This document shows, one piece after another, positions 1,414 to 54,076 of a DNA stretch of 64,000 nucleotides (the first letter of the stretch is position 1; each line of letters begins with the position of its first letter). A program made the position numbers and the translations under genes. Source of the stretch: Candidatus Moraniibacteriota bacterium (GTDB lineage: Bacteria > Patescibacteriota > Minisyncoccia > Moranbacterales > GCA-2747515); contig CALNYG010000005.1 in assembly GCA_942490825.1 (NCBI GenBank), positions 198,240-262,239 on the forward strand, in the 5' to 3' direction. The notes beneath the pieces are model-generated. The model was given only the letters and a program-made list of their open reading frames with translations, was not told the origin of the DNA and did no database searches.

Positions 1414-1445
1414 AAAAACCACCAAATATTTTTGGTGGTTTTTTT
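1414..1445. terminator. Bidirectional intrinsic terminator between convergent genes
   Basis: AAAAACCACCAAATATTTTTGGTGGTTTTTT: perfect stem flanked by an A-run and a T-run. Confidence 0.8.
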
Positions 1446-1468: not shown

Positions 1469-4400
1469 CTATAAATCAGTAACCCGCCCAATCTCATTAA
1501 AACTCGTAGCCCCTTCCAAAACCTTCAAAACACCATCTTGCGTCATCGTCAACATACCATTCTCAATCGCCTTCTTTTTAATTACAGAAGCCATTTCATG
1601 ATGAGAAATCATTATTCGTAACTCATCATCCATTACAAAAATCTCACTAATAACAGTACGACCTTTATAACCAATTCCATTACATTTTTCACAGCCAACA
1701 GGTTCATATAAATAACTCATTTCAGGAATCGGAAAATCAATTTTTGGACTTAAAGTTTCAATAACTTTTTTTATAGCATTTTTTTGCTCATCAGTAATTG
1801 CAACTTTCTTTTTACAATCGCAAAGTTTTCGTATTAACCTTTGAGCGATGAACGCATTAACAGAAGTAGTAATATCATCGGTGCCAATTCCCAAATTTAA
1901 TAATCTTTGAATGGCTCCAACAGCGTCATTTGTATGTAGTGAAGAAATCAACAAATGCCCAGTTAAGGCGGCATTCACTGCAGTTTTAGCAGTTTCATCA
2001 TCACGAATCTCACCAACCAACATTATATCTGGATCTTGACGAAGAAGTGATCGCAAAGCGGACGCAAAAGTATAATCATTTTTCTTATCAATTTGAGTTT
2101 GTAAAATCCCGTCTAACTGATACTCAATTGGATCTTCAATCGTTATAATTTTAACTTCAGAATTTTGAATTTCTTTTAGCACACTGTAAAGAGTAGTGGT
2201 TTTACCAGAGCCAGTTGGTCCAGTATTTAAAATTATTCCATAAGGTTTTTTAGCTTCATTAATAATTTTTTTCAAATTATAATCTCTAATTCCAAGTTTG
2301 CGAATATTTAAATCCACAGTCTCTCTATTCAACAAACGCAATACAACTGTTTCACCAAATCCGCCAGCAATAATTGAAACACGAATGTCCATTTTAAAAT
2401 CATCTTCATCGATAGGTGTTTCATAAACAACTCGGAAACGACTGTCAGAAACTCCTTGCCGAACAGTAGTTGGAATATTACTTAATTCCTTAATCTTTCC
2501 AATTAGTGAAGGGTAGTTAATCAAAGGAATTTCTGCCATATCTTGCAAAACTCCATCAATCCTCATTCTAATAAAAACTTTTTCTTCTTGAGGCTCAATG
2601 TGAATATCACTAGCTCGTAAAAATTTTCCATAAGCGAAGATTAAGGGGAGCATGTCTTGATCGGTGGCACCATTAATTTTTTCATTAACAAAATCTTTTT
2701 TGTGAGATGGCTCTTGCGATATATTCTGTTTTTCAATATCAACAAAAACACCACGAGAAAGTGTTTGAAACATTAAGTCGTCATAAAGTTTTTTAATCAA
2801 ATCACTTTCAGAAGCTACTCGGAAAATTTCTTCCATCGAGGTTACTCCGTTAATAGCTTTTAAAATACCGTCTTGAGTCATGGTAATAAAACCTTCTTCG
2901 ATAGCAGCTCTCATAATTTCGGTTTCACTATCCATGTTTAAAATTAATTGTTCAATTTTTTCGCTAATTGTCAAAACTTCGAAAATACCAATTCGTCCTT
3001 TGTAGCCAGTGTTGTTACATTTTTTGCAACCTTTTGGTTTATACAAATTATAAACTGTTTTTGGAATAGCAACTTTAGCCTTTGGGGATATCAAAGTTAA
3101 CATTTGTAGTATGGTTTCAATAGTTTCTTGAGCAGGTTCATATTTTTCTTTGCAATCACATAGACGTCGAACTAGTCTTTGTGCCATAAAGATATTTGTA
3201 GCTGGTGGAATTAGGGTTGGTTTTACGCCTAACTCTAGTAGGCGGGAAACAGTTGCTGGTGCATTATTTGTATGCAAAGTGGAGAGTACTAAGTGCCCAG
3301 TTAAAGCAGCATTAATGGCTGTATCAGCGGTTTCATCATCACGAATCTCACCAACTAAAATTACATCAGGGTCTTGACGAACGATAGCACGAAGACCTTT
3401 GGAAAAAGTATAATTTTTATTTTTAGAAACTTCAGTTTGGGAAATTCCCTCTATTTCATACTCGATTGGATCTTCAATTGTTATAATTTTCAGATCAGGG
3501 GTTTTAATATAATTTACTAAAGTATAAAGGGTGGTAGTTTTACCAGATCCAGTTGGTCCAGTGGTTAGAATCATTCCAGTATTTTTAGTAGTAGCGTTTT
3601 GGACATCTTCAGCAGCTTTTCCAGTTAATCCTAATTCTGACATGTGAACGTTAACTGATGCATTATCTAAAAGACGCATCACAATTCCTTCAAATTTTTT
3701 TCCAGGAATTGTGCTCACACGAACATCAATGTTACGATGATTATTTATACTAAAAGAAAAGTGACCATCCTGAGCTTCTTTTTTAATATTAATTTTCATT
3801 TTGCTCATGAGTTTAATACGAGAAAGAGCAAGTTTGTAAGTTTTGTGGGGGAAGTTAACAATGTCTTGTAAAACACCATCAATTCTGTAGCGTAAACGCA
3901 CATCTTTTTTTTGTGGCTCAAGATGGATATCACTGACATTTAGTTTTATTGCAGCAGAAAAAAGGATATGTAAGAGTTCAGTGGTCGGCATTGAGTCAAT
4001 TTTATTTTTTAAATCAATCAACTTTCCGATTCCTTCATTAAAATTTTCTAATTCTTCACCAGTAAGCATTAAGCGCATCACATCAATTGAGTCGATAAAA
4101 TAAGCGCCACGGTATTGTCTCAGGGACTGTTCTAAAGATGAGGGAGAGATTACATATAATCTAATGTCCCAGTTGTTTGTTTCTTTTAGTTCATTTAAAA
4201 ATATTAGAGCCTCTTTATTCAATGGATCAGTTGTTCCAACTCGAATTAAACTTCCAGCTCTATAAAAAATTACCAAATTGTGTTTTTCAGAAAGTTCTTG
4301 TTTGATTAAAGATACATCATCACTGTTGATAGGTAATAAGTTTAAATCAGCATAGCCCAGTCCTAATTTTCTAGCAATTCGAGAAGCGTATTCTTCAGAG

Positions 4401-4489
4401 CCTTTGTCTTTTAGACGTTCTATTTCTCGTCGGGTCTCTTCTTCATGCAGCGGTTGCATTTTTTGAATTGGTTGTGTTACTTTTACCAT
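1469..4489 (-). CDS. pilB: Tandem-duplicated type II/IV secretion (PilB/GspE-family) ATPase, two complete ATPase modules in one 1006-aa chain
   Basis: N-terminal T2SSE_N-like region. Walker A GPTGSGKTTT occurs twice, Walker B/Asp box (ILVGEIRD / MLVGEIRD) twice, His box (TGHLVLSTLHTN / TGHLLISSLHTN) twice, and tetracysteine clusters (CDCK..CKKC / CDCK..CEKC) twice. Confidence 0.9.
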   Translation of the reverse strand: MVKVTQPIQKMQPLHEEETRREIERLKDKGSEEYASRIARKLGLGYADLNLLPINSDDVSLIKQELSEKHNLVIFYRAGSLIRVGTTDPLNKEALIFLNELKETNNWDIRLYVISPSSLEQSLRQYRGAYFIDSIDVMRLMLTGEELENFNEGIGKLIDLKNKIDSMPTTELLHILFSAAIKLNVSDIHLEPQKKDVRLRYRIDGVLQDIVNFPHKTYKLALSRIKLMSKMKINIKKEAQDGHFSFSINNHRNIDVRVSTIPGKKFEGIVMRLLDNASVNVHMSELGLTGKAAEDVQNATTKNTGMILTTGPTGSGKTTTLYTLVNYIKTPDLKIITIEDPIEYEIEGISQTEVSKNKNYTFSKGLRAIVRQDPDVILVGEIRDDETADTAINAALTGHLVLSTLHTNNAPATVSRLLELGVKPTLIPPATNIFMAQRLVRRLCDCKEKYEPAQETIETILQMLTLISPKAKVAIPKTVYNLYKPKGCKKCNNTGYKGRIGIFEVLTISEKIEQLILNMDSETEIMRAAIEEGFITMTQDGILKAINGVTSMEEIFRVASESDLIKKLYDDLMFQTLSRGVFVDIEKQNISQEPSHKKDFVNEKINGATDQDMLPLIFAYGKFLRASDIHIEPQEEKVFIRMRIDGVLQDMAEIPLINYPSLIGKIKELSNIPTTVRQGVSDSRFRVVYETPIDEDDFKMDIRVSIIAGGFGETVVLRLLNRETVDLNIRKLGIRDYNLKKIINEAKKPYGIILNTGPTGSGKTTTLYSVLKEIQNSEVKIITIEDPIEYQLDGILQTQIDKKNDYTFASALRSLLRQDPDIMLVGEIRDDETAKTAVNAALTGHLLISSLHTNDAVGAIQRLLNLGIGTDDITTSVNAFIAQRLIRKLCDCKKKVAITDEQKNAIKKVIETLSPKIDFPIPEMSYLYEPVGCEKCNGIGYKGRTVISEIFVMDDELRIMISHHEMASVIKKKAIENGMLTMTQDGVLKVLEGATSFNEIGRVTDL

Positions 4490-4668
4490 AGTTTTTTTTA
4501 TTTATTTTCTTTTAGTTTAACAGTTTTTAGGTTTAAATAAAAGGGAGGTTGATCTTTAATTAGACATTCTGTGATTGACTCGAGTCATTTTTAAAGCTAC
4601 AATTATATTCATAAAATTAAAATAGTTTACTTGTATATTTTTGCAAGTTTTAAAATTGACAAAAAATT

Positions 4669-5835
4669 ATGAAAAAAGAAATTATAGAAAAAATAGCTAT
4701 TGGAACAGGTGTAGTTTTTTTGACGGCTGTTGTTATGATCTTTTTGATATTGAAAAAAGAGAAAAATGATCTTCAGAATGAATTGGTTATTGATGAAATA
4801 AAGAGCGTTGAAATTGAAGAAGAAAATGATATTAATGAGACAGTAAATGTTGAAGAAGAAAGTGTTGATTCTAAAAAAGTTGGAGATAAAAAAGAATTTT
4901 TTGAAGAAGTTGAAAATTTAGCTAGTTTAGAAAAAGATATTGAACTCAGAGAAATTGAAGAATATGAAGATGAAAAGGAAGAGATAGAGAAAGAGAAAAA
5001 AACAGATAAAAAAGAGGAAAAAATAATAACAGATAATGTTTTAAAAGAAATTGTTAAAGATAAAGAAGGAAAAAGTGAAAAGATTTTGTTTTTCAAGACT
5101 TACTGTCAGACTTTTTATGGTGATAAGTGTACAAAATATCATACAGCCATTCATTCGTTTGACATTAGCGATGAAAGCGTGAAAGAAATATATGATTTTG
5201 GAGATATAGGAGACAAAGGCGGAGGTTTTTTGTTAGAGCCAGATGATAAAAAGGTATTTTTTCAAACCAAAAGTGGTGGAATAACAGAGTTGAATTTATC
5301 TAATAATAGTTTACGATCAATAATACAAATGAATTATCGGAGTAAAGTTACTGATATGCTAATTGAGGATGATAAATTTTTCTATTTATCAGGAAGCTGT
5401 GGGGAAACTGATAAGTCTGATTGCATTTTGCAATATATGGATATGTCTAATAATTTTTTTAATAAATTTATTGCTAGTGATATTAAAAGTAAAGAGCTGA
5501 GACTTAATACAACGGGTTCTATTACTTTAGGAAGTTATAATAAATCTAAAAAATCCTTATATTTTTTAAAGAGTAAAGTAAGGAATTCGATGGACGGTAG
5601 TTTATATAAAGTTAATATTGATAATGGTGATATAAAATTAGTAGGTAAATTTGGTGATGATGGATATGAAAAATCATTTAAGAAGCGTTATTCAATGGAA
5701 GCAGATGATGAACGTGAACATTGTGAAGATTTAGGTATTTCAATTGACTTAGATAAAATAGTTGATGTAAGTTCAAAGGGACGGGATGAGGGGCGGTATA
5801 CTTTCTATAATGTTCTTGGATGTGTTGAAGATTAG
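4669..5835 (+). CDS. Hypothetical membrane-anchored protein with E/K-rich low-complexity linker
   Basis: One N-terminal TM helix (IAIGTGVVFLTAVVMIFLIL), an acidic repeat-like linker, and a C-terminal globular part with no recognised motif. Confidence 0.5.
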   Translation: MKKEIIEKIAIGTGVVFLTAVVMIFLILKKEKNDLQNELVIDEIKSVEIEEENDINETVNVEEESVDSKKVGDKKEFFEEVENLASLEKDIELREIEEYEDEKEEIEKEKKTDKKEEKIITDNVLKEIVKDKEGKSEKILFFKTYCQTFYGDKCTKYHTAIHSFDISDESVKEIYDFGDIGDKGGGFLLEPDDKKVFFQTKSGGITELNLSNNSLRSIIQMNYRSKVTDMLIEDDKFFYLSGSCGETDKSDCILQYMDMSNNFFNKFIASDIKSKELRLNTTGSITLGSYNKSKKSLYFLKSKVRNSMDGSLYKVNIDNGDIKLVGKFGDDGYEKSFKKRYSMEADDEREHCEDLGISIDLDKIVDVSSKGRDEGRYTFYNVLGCVED

Positions 5836-11505: not shown

Positions 11506-11522
11506 AAAAGTTTTTTTAAATG

Positions 11523-11609
11523 CGGAGAGTGAGGGATTCGAACCCTCGAGACCCGTTAAGGTCTAACACCTTAGCAGGGTGCCCTATTCAACCACTCTAG
11601 CAACTCTCC
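11523..11609 (-). tRNA. tRNA-Ser (anticodon GCU)
   Basis: Reverse complement GGAGAGTTGCTAGAGTGGTTGAATAGGGCACCCTGCTAAGGTGTTAGACCTTAACGGGTCTCGAGGGTTCGAATCCCTCACTCTCCG. It has a 7-bp acceptor stem, anticodon loop CTGCTAA, a long variable arm and a GGTTCGAATCC T-loop. Confidence 0.9.
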
Positions 11610-14344: not shown

Positions 14345-14360
14345 AAAATTTTTTTAAATG

Positions 14361-14447
14361 CGGAGGCGGAGGGATTCGAACCCCCGGGACCCGTGAAGGT
14401 CCTTTAGTTTTCAAGACTAATGCATTCGACCACTCTGCCACGCCTCC
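14361..14447 (-). tRNA. tRNA-Ser (anticodon UGA)
   Basis: Reverse complement GGAGGCGTGGCAGAGTGGTCGAATGCATTAGTCTTGAAAACTAAAGGACCTTCACGGGTCCCGGGGGTTCGAATCCCTCCGCCTCCG. Anticodon loop CTTGAAA and a long variable arm. Confidence 0.9.
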
Positions 14448-15948: not shown

Positions 15949-16021
15949 GTCCTTGTAGCTCAGTGGATAGAGCGTTTGGTTGCGGTCCAAAAGGTCGTAG
16001 GTTCGACTCCTACCAAGGACA
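15949..16021 (+). tRNA. tRNA-Arg (anticodon GCG)
   Basis: GTCCTTGTAGCTCAGTGGATAGAGCGTTTGGTTGCGGTCCAAAAGGTCGTAGGTTCGACTCCTACCAAGGACA folds as a canonical 73-nt cloverleaf. Anticodon loop TTGCGGT. Confidence 0.9.
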
Positions 16022-16241
16022 CAAATGTTAGACTTTTAGAATGTAGACAGTTAGATAGTTATTAATTTTGAATTTTAAATTTCAATTGAATGTAATAATT
16101 CTAAAATTTTCAAAACTTGTAGAGACGTCGATTTATCGCGTCTCTAAATGATTATCGATTGCTGATGACTTTTTAAATTAAATCTAAATAACTTAAAGGT
16201 ATCAAAAAAACCGCTAGTAACATAGCGGTTTTTTTAAGGCT

Positions 16242-17510: not shown

Positions 17511-17560
17511 TTAACTTAATCTCTTTTATGGGATTTTTAATTTAGTTAATGATAGTTATC

Positions 17561-18562
17561 ATGAAAAAGGTTTTATTTTCAGGAATGATGTGTGCGGTAA
17601 TGATTGTTTTTTCGTTTGTGATTTCTCAGAAAGATGCTCAAGCTGGAGGTGGTTGGTCTGTTGAAAGTCGTTGCACTGTAGATGGTTGGCAGATGACTCA
17701 GTGTCCAAACCCAATTACAGATATTTTTTCAGATTGTTTTATTTTTTCTGGAGATGTTTTTAATCGAGGGGATCTAGTTTTAATTGTGGATACTATAAAT
17801 GGTGAGTGTCCTGTCTGCAGTAATAAAGTTATTGAAGAGTCAGAGGAGTGTGACGATGGAAATTTGCTAGATGACGACGGTTGTGATTCTGAATGTCAGT
17901 TGGAGCCTTTTTGTGGAGATGGTTATCTTGACGATAATGAAAAATGTGACGATGGAAATATAAATGACGGAGATGGATGTAATTCAACTTGTGAGATTGA
18001 AGAAGTCCTAGAAATTCCAGAAATTCCAGAAATTCCAGAAACTTTAGAAACTCTAGAAATTCCAGAAACTTTAGAAACTCTAGAAATTCCAGAAACTTCA
18101 GAAGATAATGATAAAAACAAGGACAAGGACAAAGACAAGGACAAGGACAAAGACAAGGACAAAAATAAAGAAGGCGACTTTCGAGTAAAAATCAAAACTT
18201 ATGATTGTAATGGAAATGAAGAAAGTAAAAAGATCCAAGGTTCAAAAGTAAAACTATATAAAAGTAGTGGAAAAAAAGCAGATGAAGATAAAACTAATTT
18301 TAAAGGAGAATCTAATTTTTACGATGTCAAAGAAGGGAAATACGAAGTAAAATGTGAAGTTCCTGGATACGTTAGTTTAAAAGATCGAAGTAAAGATTAT
18401 TACAAATCTGGATCAGAAAAAGTTAAAGATGGAAAAAGAGCTCATGAAACTTGTCATCTTATTAAGGCGAGTTGTGATGCAAATGTAAAAGTTGAAAAAT
18501 TAGCACAAACAGGTGGAAGCGTTAAAGATTTAATTCTAAGTATGTTTAATTTTATATTCTAA
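17561..18562 (+). CDS. Secreted Cys-rich-repeat surface protein with C-terminal LAQTG sortase signal
   Basis: Signal peptide MKKVLFSGMMCAVMIVFSFVISQKDAQA. Two CDDGN..DGC..C repeats of the Myxococcus cysteine-rich repeat type, then PEIPE/TLETLEIPE and DKDK tandem repeats. C-terminal LAQTG is followed by a hydrophobic tail. Track start 17549; the second ATG at 17561 is preferred. Confidence 0.7.
   Translation: MKKVLFSGMMCAVMIVFSFVISQKDAQAGGGWSVESRCTVDGWQMTQCPNPITDIFSDCFIFSGDVFNRGDLVLIVDTINGECPVCSNKVIEESEECDDGNLLDDDGCDSECQLEPFCGDGYLDDNEKCDDGNINDGDGCNSTCEIEEVLEIPEIPEIPETLETLEIPETLETLEIPETSEDNDKNKDKDKDKDKDKDKDKNKEGDFRVKIKTYDCNGNEESKKIQGSKVKLYKSSGKKADEDKTNFKGESNFYDVKEGKYEVKCEVPGYVSLKDRSKDYYKSGSEKVKDGKRAHETCHLIKASCDANVKVEKLAQTGGSVKDLILSMFNFIF
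18011..18165 (+). repeat. In-frame tandem repeats (GAAATTCCA / GAAACTTTAGAAACTCTAGAAATTCCA units, then AAGGACAAGGACAAAGAC units)
   Basis: Direct reading. They encode the EIPEIPEIPETLETLEIPETLETLEIPE and DKDKDK.. tracts. Confidence 0.9.
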
Positions 18563-18590
18563 ATAAAATTTTATATATACAAAATGCCCC

Positions 18591-19367
18591 GTGAATTTTT
18601 TTAAGTTTGCGGGGCGTTTGTTTAAAAGTATTAATATTAAAAATATGTTTAAAATTTTAAATATTAAAAAAATTAATCTAAAAAGTTTTAAAAATAATAA
18701 ATTTATTTTTGCTTTATTTTCAATTTTTATTATAACTATTTCTTTTTTGTTATGGAAAAACATTGATGATAAAAGATTTGAAGAAGAAAAAACGGATAAT
18801 ATTAAACAGGAAAGAATTTTATTAGAAGAAGAATTGAAAAAAGCGGAAGAAATAGAAATAAAAAAAGAAGAATTAAAAAGAGAAGAAATAGAAGTTAGAG
18901 GTGAAGAAGAAACAGTTTATGGGGAATTGGGAGATTTTTGGATAGAAATTGATACGGATGATTTGAAAATTAAAGCTCCAATATTTGAAGGGATAAGTGG
19001 GACAAATAAAAATAAGGACAATAATATTTTAGATAAGGGCGTTGGTCATCATACTACAACTGCTTTTCCAAATGGGGAAAGCGGAAATGTGGTTCTCTCG
19101 GGTCATCGTTGGTTTCCGGGTGATCTTCCGGCGAGAACGGTTTTTATAGATTTGGATAAGTTGAAAGTTAATGATCGAGTTAGATTGTATTTTGATGGGG
19201 AGGAATTTGTGTATAGAATTACTGGTCAAAAAGTGATTAAGGATACTGAAACGTATATTTTGGATCAAACGGAAAAGGCTACGATTACTATTTATACTTG
19301 TACGCCGAAATATCCTTTGGTTACGCCGACTGATAGATTGGTTTATTTTGGGGAATTGGTTAAGTAG
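18591..19367 (+). CDS. Sortase (transpeptidase) with N-terminal membrane anchor
   Basis: Catalytic triad context: VVLSGHRW (His), ITIYTCTP (TLxTC-like Cys), TDRLVY (Arg). Lies immediately downstream of the LAQTG protein. Confidence 0.8.
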   Translation: MNFFKFAGRLFKSINIKNMFKILNIKKINLKSFKNNKFIFALFSIFIITISFLLWKNIDDKRFEEEKTDNIKQERILLEEELKKAEEIEIKKEELKREEIEVRGEEETVYGELGDFWIEIDTDDLKIKAPIFEGISGTNKNKDNNILDKGVGHHTTTAFPNGESGNVVLSGHRWFPGDLPARTVFIDLDKLKVNDRVRLYFDGEEFVYRITGQKVIKDTETYILDQTEKATITIYTCTPKYPLVTPTDRLVYFGELVK

Positions 19368-23948: not shown

Positions 23949-25401
23949 TGTCACTTACCAATGATAATGTCATACCAGGTTACCAATAGAAATGTCATAC
24001 CTATTAAAATTATGTTAGTTTTACATGTTAACATTTAAAAAACATGAAAAACTATGCAAGATACAATAATCATGACAAATAAGGAATCTCAAAGGTATGA
24101 AATCATAAATAATTTAATAAACAATAAGATAAACGGAACACAAGCATTCAGACAATTAAATTTATCAGTCAGACAAACTAAAAGGTTAAAAGCTAAAGTA
24201 AACAGAAAAGGAATACAAGGAATAATTCATAAAAGCAGGGGGAAAGAAAGTAATAGAAAATTAGATGAAAAATTAAAAAAGAAAATCATAAAAACAATCA
24301 AAGAAAACTATTCAGATTTTTCATCACAATTAACTTATGAAAAATTAAATGAAGTTCATGAAATTAAAATAAGTTACACTTCGACGAGAAGAATTAGAAT
24401 AAACGAAGGTTTAAGTACAGTCAAAAAAAGAAAACAAAATAAAAAATACTTCTCACAAAGAGAAAGAAAAGAACATTATGGAGAATTAGTTCAATTCGAT
24501 GGTTCATATCATGATTGGCTTGAAAATGAAGAAGAGCAATGCCTGTTACTTGCAGTAGACGATGCTACTAGCGAGATAACTCCAGAACTTGATAAAAATG
24601 AAGGTATACAAGCAGTATTTAATTTTTGGAAAGAATACGTACAAGAAAAAGGAAGACCATTAGCTATTTATCTAGATAAATTCAGTACTTACAAAGTAAA
24701 TCACAAAAATGCAACGGACAATCAAGAATTCAAGACACAATTTCAAAGAGCTATGAAAGAATTAGATATACAAGTAATTTTTGCTAATACGCCTCAAGCC
24801 AAGGGAAGAGTAGAAAGAATGAACGAAACTTTACAAGACAGAATGATCAAAGAAATGCGACTAGCTAAAATAAATAGTATCGAACAAGCCGATGAATTTA
24901 TTAAAGAAAAATTTACTCCAGAATTTAATAAAAAATTCAATGTTCCCGCAAAGAAAAAAGGAGACCTACACAGAAAACTAACTAAGCAAGAAAAAGATAA
25001 ATTAAATAATATTTTCTCAATTAAAAGCACTAGAAAAATAAGGAATGATTTTGTAGTTCAATATAAAAATAGATATTTTCAATTAAATGAAATACAACCA
25101 ACTACAGTTTACAAAAAGGATGAAGTAATTATAGAAGAACATTTAGATGATTCAATTCATATTTCTAAAAAAGATAAATATTTAAGTTTTAAAGAATTAC
25201 CACATAAACCCAAAAAAGAAAATGAACTAAAATTACCAGCTATCACTAAAAGAAAATCAGATTACACTCCACCAGCAGATCATCCTTGGAGAAGCTACCA
25301 ATTTAAAAAAGAAAAATTAAAAGCTCAAAAATTAATTAAATTCTAAAGGTATGACATTTCTAAAGAAAACAAAGGTATGACATTTCTATTGGTAGTTGAC
25401 A
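23949..25401 (+). mobile_element. Intact insertion sequence, ISNCY/IS1202-like (rve-type DDE transposase), 1453 bp
   Basis: Terminal IRs TGTCACTTACCAAT / TGTCAACTACCAAT (12/14). Subterminal repeats AATGTCATACC occur twice at each end. A perfect 15-bp direct repeat GTTTTTTTGATTGAC flanks it at 23934-23948 and 25402-25416. Confidence 0.85.
24054..25346 (+). CDS. DDE (rve/integrase-core) transposase with N-terminal HTH
   Basis: LVQFDGSYHDW (D), IYLDKFSTY (D), AKGRVERMNETLQDR (E). Confidence 0.85.
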   Translation: MQDTIIMTNKESQRYEIINNLINNKINGTQAFRQLNLSVRQTKRLKAKVNRKGIQGIIHKSRGKESNRKLDEKLKKKIIKTIKENYSDFSSQLTYEKLNEVHEIKISYTSTRRIRINEGLSTVKKRKQNKKYFSQRERKEHYGELVQFDGSYHDWLENEEEQCLLLAVDDATSEITPELDKNEGIQAVFNFWKEYVQEKGRPLAIYLDKFSTYKVNHKNATDNQEFKTQFQRAMKELDIQVIFANTPQAKGRVERMNETLQDRMIKEMRLAKINSIEQADEFIKEKFTPEFNKKFNVPAKKKGDLHRKLTKQEKDKLNNIFSIKSTRKIRNDFVVQYKNRYFQLNEIQPTTVYKKDEVIIEEHLDDSIHISKKDKYLSFKELPHKPKKENELKLPAITKRKSDYTPPADHPWRSYQFKKEKLKAQKLIKF

Positions 25402-25514
25402 GTTTTTTTGATTGACTTTAAGTGAGTTGTTTGATAAGTTTAAATATCTGGCAATCTGGTCAGATATGGTTAAGGACGTTATTTAAATTTAAATATGTTT
25501 GTGAGAGGATAATT

Positions 25515-25730
25515 ATGAAGATAAGTCTCAATAATTATGTTTTTGTTCAACTTACTGATTATGGTAAATCAGTTTGTAGGGATTATTATAATAAGTATGG
25601 GCAAAAAGCGCCCAGTCTTGAAGGAAAAGTTAAGTTTCTTTTATGGGAGCTTATGAAAATTTTTGGTGAAAAATGTTATCAAGGCAATACTAATGTGTTT
25701 AAAGACTGTTTAATTGAAATTGAAAATTGA
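25515..25730 (+). CDS. Small hypothetical protein (71 aa)
   Basis: ATG at 25515 preceded by GAGAGGA. The track's longer 25422 start lacks support. Followed by terminator hairpin ATTCCGCAA..TTGCGGAATTTTTT (about 25755-25800). Confidence 0.45.
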   Translation: MKISLNNYVFVQLTDYGKSVCRDYYNKYGQKAPSLEGKVKFLLWELMKIFGEKCYQGNTNVFKDCLIEIEN

Positions 25731-25843
25731 GATTGGCAGTTTCAAAGAATGTAAGATTCCGCAATTTTTAGTTAAGAATTTGCGGAATTTTTTGTTTTTT
25801 AGAAATGAAATTTTATAACAAACCATGCTATAATTAAAAGATT

Positions 25844-26524
25844 ATGGAAAAAACTACACAACAATTAAAGAAAGAATATCCACCAAAAGTCTATAAAATA
25901 AAAGACAAAATAAATTTTGTTATAACTGCAATATTATTATTAGAAATAGTATTCGCACTTTTTCGAACTGAATGGATGGTATTATTTATCACAACAATAA
26001 CTCTAATCCTAACTCTGTCAGTTCAACTGGTTACCAAAAAAACCAGTAGTTTTATCTATATTCCCGAAGAACTTCAAATAGCAACTGTTCTTTTTATTTT
26101 CGCAACTTTATTTCTCGGAGAAATTCACGGATATTACGAATCATTTTGGTGGTGGGATTTAGTTTTACATGCAGGTTCGGCAATTGTTTTTGGATTTATT
26201 GGGTTTATAATTTTACTAGTTTTACAAAGAGGAGGGCGAGTCGAAGCAAAAGCATTTTGGTTGGCAATTTTTTCTTTTAGTTTTGCGATGGCAATTGGTG
26301 TTGTGTGGGAGATTTTTGAATTTACTGCTGATCAACTCTTTGATTTCAACATGCAAAAGTCAGGCTTAGTTGATACGATGTGGGATTTGATTGTTAATTC
26401 ATTGGGCGCTTTATTTGCGTCATTTTTTGGATTCTTATATTTAAAAGGAGAGGATAAGTTTTCTTTTGCTGTATTGATGAGCGAGTTTATTAAAAAGAAT
26501 CCACGATTTTTTCGAGATAGATGA
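25844..26524 (+). CDS. Hypothetical polytopic membrane protein
   Basis: About six TM helices; WWWDLVLHAGSA and WEIFEFTADQ motifs. Family not confidently recognised. Confidence 0.5.
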   Translation: MEKTTQQLKKEYPPKVYKIKDKINFVITAILLLEIVFALFRTEWMVLFITTITLILTLSVQLVTKKTSSFIYIPEELQIATVLFIFATLFLGEIHGYYESFWWWDLVLHAGSAIVFGFIGFIILLVLQRGGRVEAKAFWLAIFSFSFAMAIGVVWEIFEFTADQLFDFNMQKSGLVDTMWDLIVNSLGALFASFFGFLYLKGEDKFSFAVLMSEFIKKNPRFFRDR

Positions 26525-53963: not shown

Positions 53964-54050
53964 GGAAGCGTGCCTGAGTGGTTTAAAGGGCTTGCTTGGA
54001 AAGCAAGTGTGTCGTTTTCGGCACCGAAGGTTCGAATCCTTTCGCTTCCG
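53964..54050 (+). tRNA. tRNA-Ser (anticodon GGA)
   Basis: GGAAGCGTGCCTGAGTGGTTTAAAGGGCTTGCTTGGAAAGCAAGTGTGTCGTTTTCGGCACCGAAGGTTCGAATCCTTTCGCTTCCG. Anticodon loop TTGGAAA and a long variable arm. Confidence 0.9.
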
Positions 54051-54076
54051 CATAAATCTTTCTAAGCTATAAAATA

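Follow-up and report, generated by a model that had tools for sequence, protein, structure and literature searches.

Gene and domain organization

We analysed a stretch of 64,000 nucleotides from Candidatus Moraniibacteriota bacterium (GCA_942490825.1, contig CALNYG010000005.1, positions 198,240 to 262,239), called the window below, and focused on one gene on its minus strand (1469..4489) that encodes two PilB/GspE-type secretion ATPases fused in a single polypeptide. The open reading frame (ORF) starts with ATG, ends with a stop codon at 1469–1471 and encodes 1006 aa; that the gene is complete is supported by its domains and motifs, by an identical protein (P0001) and by full-length homologues. 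Pfam detected one MshEN/N1 domain (aa 42–128) and two T2SSE stretches that together scored 733 bits, giving the layout N1-[N2D-CTD]-linker-[N2D-CTD], where CTD is the C-terminal domain and a single N1 is present for two motor units. The two halves (aa 163–558 and aa 603–1003) aligned with 44% identity (E = 1e-120), which confirmed the original prediction, made from the sequence of the window, of one N-terminal N1-type domain followed by two full ATPase units.

Motor unit 1 is located at 2810..3994 (N2D aa 166–280, CTD aa 281–560), with a T2SSE match and Foldseek TM-scores by target (TMt) of up to 0.90 against PilB cores, and motor unit 2 at 1472..2671 (N2D aa 607–726, CTD aa 727–1006), also with a T2SSE match. 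They are joined by a linker of aa 561–606 (2672..2809), and unit 1 is preceded by a predicted helical segment of aa 129–165 (3995..4105), which probably belongs to the duplicated block as judged by its hhalign match to the linker. The N1 domain (MshEN/GSPII, 4106..4366) matched PF05157 with 27.5 bits against a cutoff of 23.1, and it is the fastest-evolving folded part of the protein (mean pairwise identity 0.41). MshE-type N domains that bind cyclic di-GMP carry a 24-residue RLGxx(L/V/I)(L/V/I)xxG... motif; the N-terminus was viewed by eye only, without a formal test, and no obvious match to this motif was noticed.

Of the NCBIfam models, GspE scored highest for the whole protein as well as for each unit alone. 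The full protein scored 858 with GspE (TIGR02533, cutoff 630) and 843 with PilB (TIGR02538, cutoff 676), but it exceeded these cutoffs only through the summing of two units, each of which stayed below them alone. Unit 1 alone scored 452 bits with GspE, 447 with PilB and 193 with PilT, and unit 2 alone scored 410, 379 and 164 bits, respectively (PilT cutoff 319). The competence ATPase model ComGA gave a sub-threshold match. A fusion of PilB with PilT, joining extension and retraction motors, was considered and rejected, because both units score as PilB/GspE, far above PilT, and both carry the zinc motif.

The fused protein belongs to the PilB/GspE clade and is best explained as an assembly ATPase of type IV filaments. 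It has the T2SSE fold, Walker A, Asp box, atypical Walker B, His box, arginine fingers and N1 domain that characterize the clade, and the tetracysteine zinc motif, which is found in PilB/GspE and is missing from PilT/PilU/FlaI (PMC5424180), occurs in both units. It departs from the clade in that the chain holds two units instead of one. The PilT/PilU class, with pilT_fam as best match and neither N1 nor zinc motif, does not fit the protein.

Conservation of both motor units

All catalytic motifs were found twice: Walker A at aa 311 and 757, the Asp box at 339 and 785, Walker B (GEIRD) at 380 and 826, and the His box at 398 and 844. In unit 1, Walker A (GPTGSGKTT, aa 311–319, K317) lies at 3533..3559 and Walker B with the catalytic Glu (aa 376–384, E381) at 3338..3364, while the corresponding segments of unit 2 lie at 2195..2221 (aa 757–765, K763) and 2000..2026 (aa 822–830, E827). 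The CxC...CxxC zinc motif is formed by C444, C446, C488 and C491 in unit 1 (3017..3160) and by C890, C892, C933 and C936 in unit 2 (1682..1822). Across 116 full-length homologues, the Walker A Lys, both Asp-box Glu and the catalytic Glu were 100% conserved in both units, and both His-box His, the four zinc cysteines and two arginine fingers were likewise invariant. The arginine fingers (R257 and R272 in unit 1, R703 and R718 in unit 2) were mapped from R271 and R286 of Geobacter metallireducens PilB (GmPilB), which are universally conserved N2D residues, through the PDB alignment and the published description (PMC5424180), with an inferred offset of 20 tag residues between the chain and the native GmPilB numbering.

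The ratio of non-synonymous to synonymous substitution rates (dN/dS), calculated against a relative at 86% identity, was 0.06–0.12 in the folded domains and 0.20 in the linker, and was similarly low in both units; the N2D of unit 2 showed a dN/dS of 0.07 and a mean pairwise identity of 0.62. No nucleotide-binding or catalytic residue has been lost from either unit, and purifying selection on both is strong. The intact Walker A, Asp box, Walker B, His box and zinc motif predicted for each unit thus hold across the 116 homologues, whose alignment revealed no loss of catalytic residues in either half, the result that had been named as a refutation. As the original prediction proposed, the gene does not appear to be a decayed duplication, and from these residues both units probably bind and hydrolyse ATP.

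Nevertheless, units 1 and 2 are not equivalent. Every unit 1 and 116 of 136 single-unit PilBs have the Arg corresponding to R224, whereas another residue takes its place in all unit 2s of the family that descends from the old duplication described below. In the 1006-aa protein, R224 and H243 lie in the region from helix alpha2 to strand beta4 of the unit 1 N2D (aa 215–247, 3749..3847), and the residue table gives K665 in place of the conserved Arg, with R684 kept, in the corresponding region of unit 2 (aa 656–688, 2426..2524). H243, found in unit 1 of the Moranbacteria subfamily, sits at the position of GmPilB R257, an Arg that forms a salt bridge with the Asp-box Glu in the open ATP-bound interface (PMC5424180). 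Unit-specific differences also cluster most densely in the alpha2–beta4 region, where they account for 8 of 33 positions (background 9.4%, binomial p about 0.01). A second unit-specific cluster was observed just past the His box (aa 417–426 and 863–872; nt 3212–3241 and 1874–1903, minus strand), reading ...LELGVKPTL... in unit 1 and ...LNLGIGTDD... in unit 2.

The linker and the junction

The junction between the halves (nt 2770–2830, about aa 554–573) is in frame, and the linker spans 71 residues between anchor columns in 114 of the 116 proteins, with 46 aa here. A stop codon or frameshift between the halves, which would have meant two adjacent genes, was therefore not found. The linker has the consensus motif FLEEIYEKLMxQSLSR (DLIKKLYDDLMFQTLSR in the 1006-aa protein) and is predicted to be helical with a hinge near aa 571–580. 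By hhalign it matched the pre-N2D segment of unit 1 with a probability of 87% (E = 4e-6, 70 columns), a share of this signal coming from the first N2D helix. Since the linker aligns to the helices before unit 1, the duplicated block probably extended from about aa 117–130 to 560.

Two candidates for a split gene, P0185 and P0140, are on contigs of about 2.5 kb. P0140 (L013:354–2159) is a single-unit PilB relative that ends in a remnant of the linker motif (...ESLHDFFKEILEAK...), and the 286 nt that follow its stop codon contain nothing like unit 2. It may represent an ancestral form carrying a C-terminal helix, or else a truncated double protein.

Homologues and rarity of the fusion

A search of 5.8 billion proteins returned the identical protein P0001 (100%) and 119 other listed matches, all of them homologous clusters. 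Among these, 115 were full-length (about 1003–1047 aa) with 53–88% identity and 95–100% coverage, and the rest were the 1460-aa P0005 and three slightly shorter proteins. The homologues came from NCBI, ENA, JGI and Logan assemblies, one of them on a complete genome of 1.29 Mb; the named hosts among the listed matches were Moranbacteria or Parcubacteria, and the annotation was only "GspE/PulE family protein". A HMMER search over 1.84 billion representatives yielded 14,791 PilB/GspE-like proteins (E <= 1e-30), of which about 14 were full-length double-unit proteins. Further named carriers were Parcubacteria GW2011_GWA2_47_8 (KKU82539.1), Paceibacterota and a metagenome-assembled genome (MAG) of Buchananbacteria. 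The same fusion, suggested as a search target in genomes of the candidate phyla radiation (CPR), thus exists there as a conserved family. The fused architecture is conserved across Paceibacteria-type CPR bacteria and is rare among PilB/GspE-like proteins, and that it represents a real conserved fused gene is practically certain.

A locus in a Verrucomicrobia MAG (L007, JACRJY010000207.1) was examined as a possible fusion and rejected: it has two separate pilB genes in an ordinary cluster. At L007:9839–14454, two separate PilB-like ORFs of ~570 aa (tblastn, about 35% identity) flank a 365-aa ORF, and a 431-aa ORF follows next downstream; the latter two were guessed to be pilT and pilC from their size only. 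This unfused arrangement of paralogous motors serves as a comparison case.

Duplication history and related architectures

The two units share 45% identity with each other, while unit 1 reaches 54% with single-unit PilBs. In quartet tests on a per-unit alignment, 145 of 190 protein pairs supported the grouping of like units (unit 1 with unit 1, unit 2 with unit 2). For the 1006-aa protein, the quartet bootstrap was at least 99% against P0121, P0122, P0124 and P0128 and about 70% against the Buchananbacteria lineage, and it was undecided against P0130. In the whole neighbour-joining tree, bootstraps of the deep clades were weak (8.5% for unit 1, 47.5% for unit 2), so the age of the duplication is taken from the quartet tests and the shared R224 loss in unit 2, not from monophyly in that tree. 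The alignments of the halves with each other and with single-unit PilBs, proposed for dating the duplication, thus suggest that the fusion stems mostly from one old duplication, as all unit 2s in the family share the derived loss of the R224-equivalent Arg.

In P0131, P0132 and P0137 the two units are mutual closest relatives (73%, 55% and 44% identical, 94–100% bootstrap), reflecting either independent duplications or gene conversion between units. P0132 (L009:8001–10985) lies upstream of ruvB and may be a homogenised orthologue, because the main family also adjoins ruvB. P0124 has lost two zinc cysteines in unit 2.

Unit number also varies. P0005 (1460 aa, L008:10001–14383, JGI metagenome 3300022698) is an orthologue that contains three complete motor units and shares the syntenic position of the fused gene. 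The unit in the middle is chimeric: its N-terminal part resembles unit 3, with an N2D like that of unit 2, and its C-terminal part resembles unit 1, which suggests unequal crossing-over. Given the divergence to 57–74% identity, this is no assembly artefact. P0137 (L010:8001–11144, GCA_964384625.1) belongs to a genome outside the CPR and combines two cytoplasmic repeats of the PilC type (T2SSF, 84.5 bits) with two ATPase units C-terminal to them. In the first of these units Walker A is degenerate (GSGTTT), its Lys being lost, and one Asp-box Glu is missing as well. The neighbours of P0137 encode an ECF (extracytoplasmic function) sigma factor, an anti-sigma factor, a sulfatase and BatA/VWA proteins. 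P0166 (553 aa) is a single-unit PilB with a unit-1-like N2D and a CTD grouping with unit 2, and by its sequence it may be a double protein collapsed to one unit by inter-repeat recombination. From the forms P0005, P0137 and P0166, unit number appears to change by recombination between repeats.

Comparison with known systems

The best sequence match among solved structures was Geobacter PilB (E = 1e-106). Foldseek gave TMt values of 0.85–0.90 against PilB cores, with scores by query (TMq) of at most 0.36, and no PDB chain spanning both units was found by sequence or fold. The AlphaFold model of the full chain had a pLDDT (predicted local distance difference test) of 78 and a pTM (predicted template-modelling score) of 0.54, and the model of CTD1-linker-N2D2 had a pLDDT of 83 and a pTM of 0.64; the individual domains were well modelled in both.

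PilB of G. metallireducens (PDB 5TSG/5TSH/6OLJ) shares with the fused protein the N1, N2D and CTD, the catalytic motifs, the arginine fingers and the tetracysteine zinc site, with 43–44% identity and a TMt of up to 0.89 for the core. The fused protein differs in having two N2D-CTD units and one N1 per chain, in a unit 2 without one conserved N2D arginine, in a unit 1 His at the GmPilB R257 position, and in a gene not clustered with pilC, pilM and pilT. GspE/EpsE of the type II secretion system (T2SS; PDB 1P9R, 4KSR, 4PHT) is similar in being the top NCBIfam model, in the zinc motif and in the logic of N2D-CTD packing, whereas it has one unit per chain and is encoded in gsp operons with GspL and GspF; no outer-membrane T2SS is known from CPR bacteria. 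PilF of Thermus thermophilus (PDB 6F8L, 913 aa) is also a PilB-family ATPase enlarged by internal repetition, but it repeats N-terminal GSPII/N1 domains before a single ATPase core, whereas the fused protein repeats the ATPase core itself. Several P-loop motor units in one polypeptide are known from engineered linked ClpX, from p97/NSF/ClpB and from EccC of the type VII secretion system (three FtsK-like domains), and they fix the order or the stoichiometry of the units. These are unrelated or distant ATPases; the natural ones stack their domains, and linked ClpX is artificial.

The platform protein PilC/GspF/PulF also has two repeats per chain, and in P0137 the two kinds of repeat occur in a single polypeptide. 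The platform is a membrane protein and not an ATPase; the parallel with the fused protein is one of stoichiometry, not of homology. PilC/GspF/PulF is itself an internal duplication of two T2SSF repeats (PMC6668835).

Genomic context

The fused gene converges on a methyltransferase gene on one side and diverges from the gene upstream on the other; by this arrangement it is monocistronic. Between it and the methyltransferase gene, a terminator-like hairpin (1414..1443) with a 13-bp stem between an A-run and a T-run may act as terminator; it was the one terminator-like site in the region, within chance expectation (1.9 +- 1.7). The 5' intergenic region (4490..4668), shared with the divergent gene at 4669–5835, is from the gene arrangement the presumed promoter region, and promoter-like matches around the fused gene were at chance level only.

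The original prediction described the gene as standing alone, and this was borne out. Among the 30 ORFs scanned in the window we found no pilus genes, no second T2SSE copy and no prepilin-like N-terminus, and within +-10 kb (+-8 kb for L009–L011) in the loci of seven relatives there was no pilC/gspF, pilM/gspL, pilT, prepilin peptidase or pilin gene. In four of these loci (L001, which comes from the complete genome CP175956.1, L003, L008 and L011) the gene lay in a conserved neighbourhood of housekeeping type, made up of genes for DHH phosphoesterase, fused pilB, ruvB, bPH_2, a large LTD-PKD-LTD protein, yebC and ruvC, with 7TM_transglut and ATP-grasp genes beyond ruvC. Adjacency to ruvB is usual and was seen in Moranbacteria, the GWA2_47_8 group and the P0132 lineage; the Buchananbacteria neighbours differ (FtsH, trigger factor, TsaD).

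A conserved adjacent partner was considered and rejected, as the upstream ORFs of 340–390 aa are unrelated between lineages; in several relatives' loci the upstream gene encodes a DHH phosphoesterase. In the window, the product of the divergent upstream ORF (388 aa, 4669–5835, plus strand) has a transmembrane helix at its N-terminus, a long, acidic stretch of low complexity and a C-terminal domain with Cys. Pfam gave no match for it, and conservation was limited to the closest relative (49–51% identity to the L003 ORF).

Elsewhere in the window, a DUF4215/SdrD_B-domain protein (17549–19367, plus strand) is followed directly by a sortase gene, probably a sortase–substrate pair. The bin 24001–26000 has the second-lowest G+C content (0.266) and by far the strongest AT skew (+0.23); its 430-aa ORF (24054–25346) gave a sub-threshold HTH_32 match only, and the bin may be foreign or mobile DNA. 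Four tRNA genes were detected, Ser-GCT (11522–11609), Ser-TGA (14360–14447), Arg-GCG (15949–16022) and Ser-GGA (53964–54051), and no other Rfam family reached threshold in the window.

Proposed assembly of the motor and alternative explanations

In the PilB hexamer, the N2D packs rigidly on the CTD of the neighbouring chain, and the ATP site lies between the N2D and CTD of one chain (PMC5424180). The original prediction assumed hexamers with alternating subunit conformations. This does not agree with the available PilB structures, which are all C2 "CCOCCO", the alternating C3 "OCOCOC" state being known from PilT, FlaI, DotB and archaeal GspE2 (PMC6858323). In the cross-link-validated PulE6:PulF3 model, a PulF/PilC trimer places each cytoplasmic repeat on one N2D, and the PulF Cyto domain contacts the N2D through alpha2 and the alpha2–beta4 loop (PMC10790770).

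We propose that an old internal duplication copied the whole motor block of pre-N2D helices, N2D and CTD, and that three fused chains would form one six-unit ring, a pseudo-hexamer with three N1 anchor domains only. The trimer of dimers that the original prediction derived from the fusion is thus plausible. This ring would drive a platform protein PilC/GspF encoded elsewhere in the genome, as a normal PilB hexamer does. Because the platform protein has two cytoplasmic repeats and is modelled as a trimer (6:3), a trimer of double ATPases would pair with it chain for chain, and the two units could specialise for the two PilC repeats. The unit numbers two and three (the latter in P0005), which both divide six, the T2SSF x2-T2SSE x2 fusion in P0137 and the alpha2–beta4 enrichment of unit-specific positions all agree with this proposal. 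In a three-chain ring, unit 1 always faces unit 2, so a C2 cycle would pair unlike units; this is possible only if both are active, as their conservation suggests.

Several points weigh against this proposal. PilB is normally C2, and three identical two-unit chains cannot share C2 symmetrically. The pTM values of 0.54 and 0.64 mean that AlphaFold does not fix the relative placement of the units. The alpha2–beta4 enrichment is modest (5 of 25 positions if limited to the published alpha2 and loop), the region was chosen partly post hoc, and the helix numbering was matched from the model to PulE by ourselves. P0137 stands for one sequence cluster only, and its first unit is degenerate. No pilC, pilM, pilT or pilin gene was near the fused gene in any locus examined, and the partner machinery is assumed. 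On balance, a role as pilus or pseudopilus motor is probable and a single six-unit ring of three chains is slightly favoured, while the combined explanation (a fused gene, both units active, a pilus motor and a three-chain ring) has about an even chance of being right in all its parts. A more specific version, possible but doubtful, is a natural "linked-subunit" PilB, in which the units of the three-chain ring are co-specialised for two non-identical PilC repeats in a 3:3 complex and P0005 and P0137 are independent variants.

An arrangement we consider unlikely is a functionally split ring, in which one unit, probably the more PilB-like unit 1, does the work and the other has a regulatory or structural role, binding ATP with little hydrolysis or lacking platform contact. 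It would account for the replacement of the R224-equivalent Arg in every unit 2 of the old-duplication family while most single-unit PilBs (116/136) retain it, and for the fact that unit 1 resembles single-unit PilBs (up to 54%) more than it does unit 2 (45%); decay of one unit is also seen in relatives, in unit 1 of P0137 (Walker A Lys) and unit 2 of P0124 (two zinc cysteines). H243, replacing in unit 1 the Arg that salt-bridges the Asp-box Glu in GmPilB, speaks for unequal units as well. However, in the family of the 1006-aa protein the catalytic residues and arginine fingers are invariant in both units, and dN/dS is similarly low in both. Two-ring AAA+ proteins such as p97, NSF and ClpB suggest another arrangement, still less likely, in which six chains form a unit-1 ring and a unit-2 ring stacked with 12 ATPase units. 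The structured, fixed-length 46-aa linker could bridge rings or in-ring neighbours equally, the AlphaFold models leave the inter-unit packing undefined, and the full set of six N1 anchors would be kept. Against stacking, ring contacts in the PilB family are made by the N2D on the neighbouring CTD (PMC5424180), and the catalogued conformational classes include no stacked double ring (PMC6858323). The N2D face of a second ring could not reach the platform, yet the unit 2 N2D is highly conserved, and the two- and three-unit variants and the 2 x T2SSF + 2 x T2SSE fusion suit in-ring arithmetic better.

The absence of pilus genes beside the fused gene in all loci examined, its conserved place next to ruvB and near the DHH phosphoesterase, yebC and ruvC genes, and the sub-threshold ComGA match would also be explained by an orphan secretion-type ATPase recruited elsewhere, for example to DNA uptake or processing with the neighbouring recombination genes. 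We regard this as improbable, since housekeeping synteny may carry no functional meaning and the Buchananbacteria neighbours differ, while N1, the zinc motif and N2D surfaces typical of PilB/GspE are kept; type IV pili are also reported as well conserved in the group (PMC12206443). Finally, the assembly is of metagenome type, repeated units can disrupt an assembly, and several family members exist as short fragments. This made it necessary to consider a spurious fusion, either of two neighbouring pilB genes through a frameshift or the loss of a stop codon, or through collapse of a repeat. Such an assembly or gene-calling artefact can be dismissed for practical purposes: the same uninterrupted architecture of 1003–1009 aa recurs in more than 120 clusters across the NCBI, ENA, JGI and Logan assemblies, the complete genome included, the linker is of fixed length, conserved and under purifying selection, and misassembled copies are ruled out because the units are only 44% identical.

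Implications

No published description of a fused or internally duplicated PilB/GspE was found in full-text searches of the literature or in comparative surveys of type IV filament systems, subscription-only papers being outside the scope of the search. The sequences have been public for years under generic names; the chemistry is that of ordinary PilB, but the covalent double-unit architecture is unusual, conserved and of use for experiments.

Questions still open for PilB/GspE concern the firing order of the six ATP sites (C2 or C3), the number of platform chains per ring and the N2D surfaces that transmit force, and they have so far been addressed with homo-hexamers, in which all sites are identical. 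The fused protein fixes two distinguishable units (three in P0005) in order, so that a single class of site can be mutated and the effect read. Linked-subunit ClpX constructs enabled this strategy for AAA+ unfoldases. The fused protein could show whether a three-chain ring runs a C2 cycle and could provide a stoichiometric test of the proposed PilB6:PilC3 complex. If the linked-subunit version with co-specialised units is true, P0005 would need two chains per six-unit ring, and evolution would have repeatedly hard-wired the ratio of motor to platform, a stoichiometry still under debate for type IV filament machines. For CPR biology, the fusion marks a redesign, specific to this lineage, of a machine considered central to host attachment and possibly to DNA uptake.

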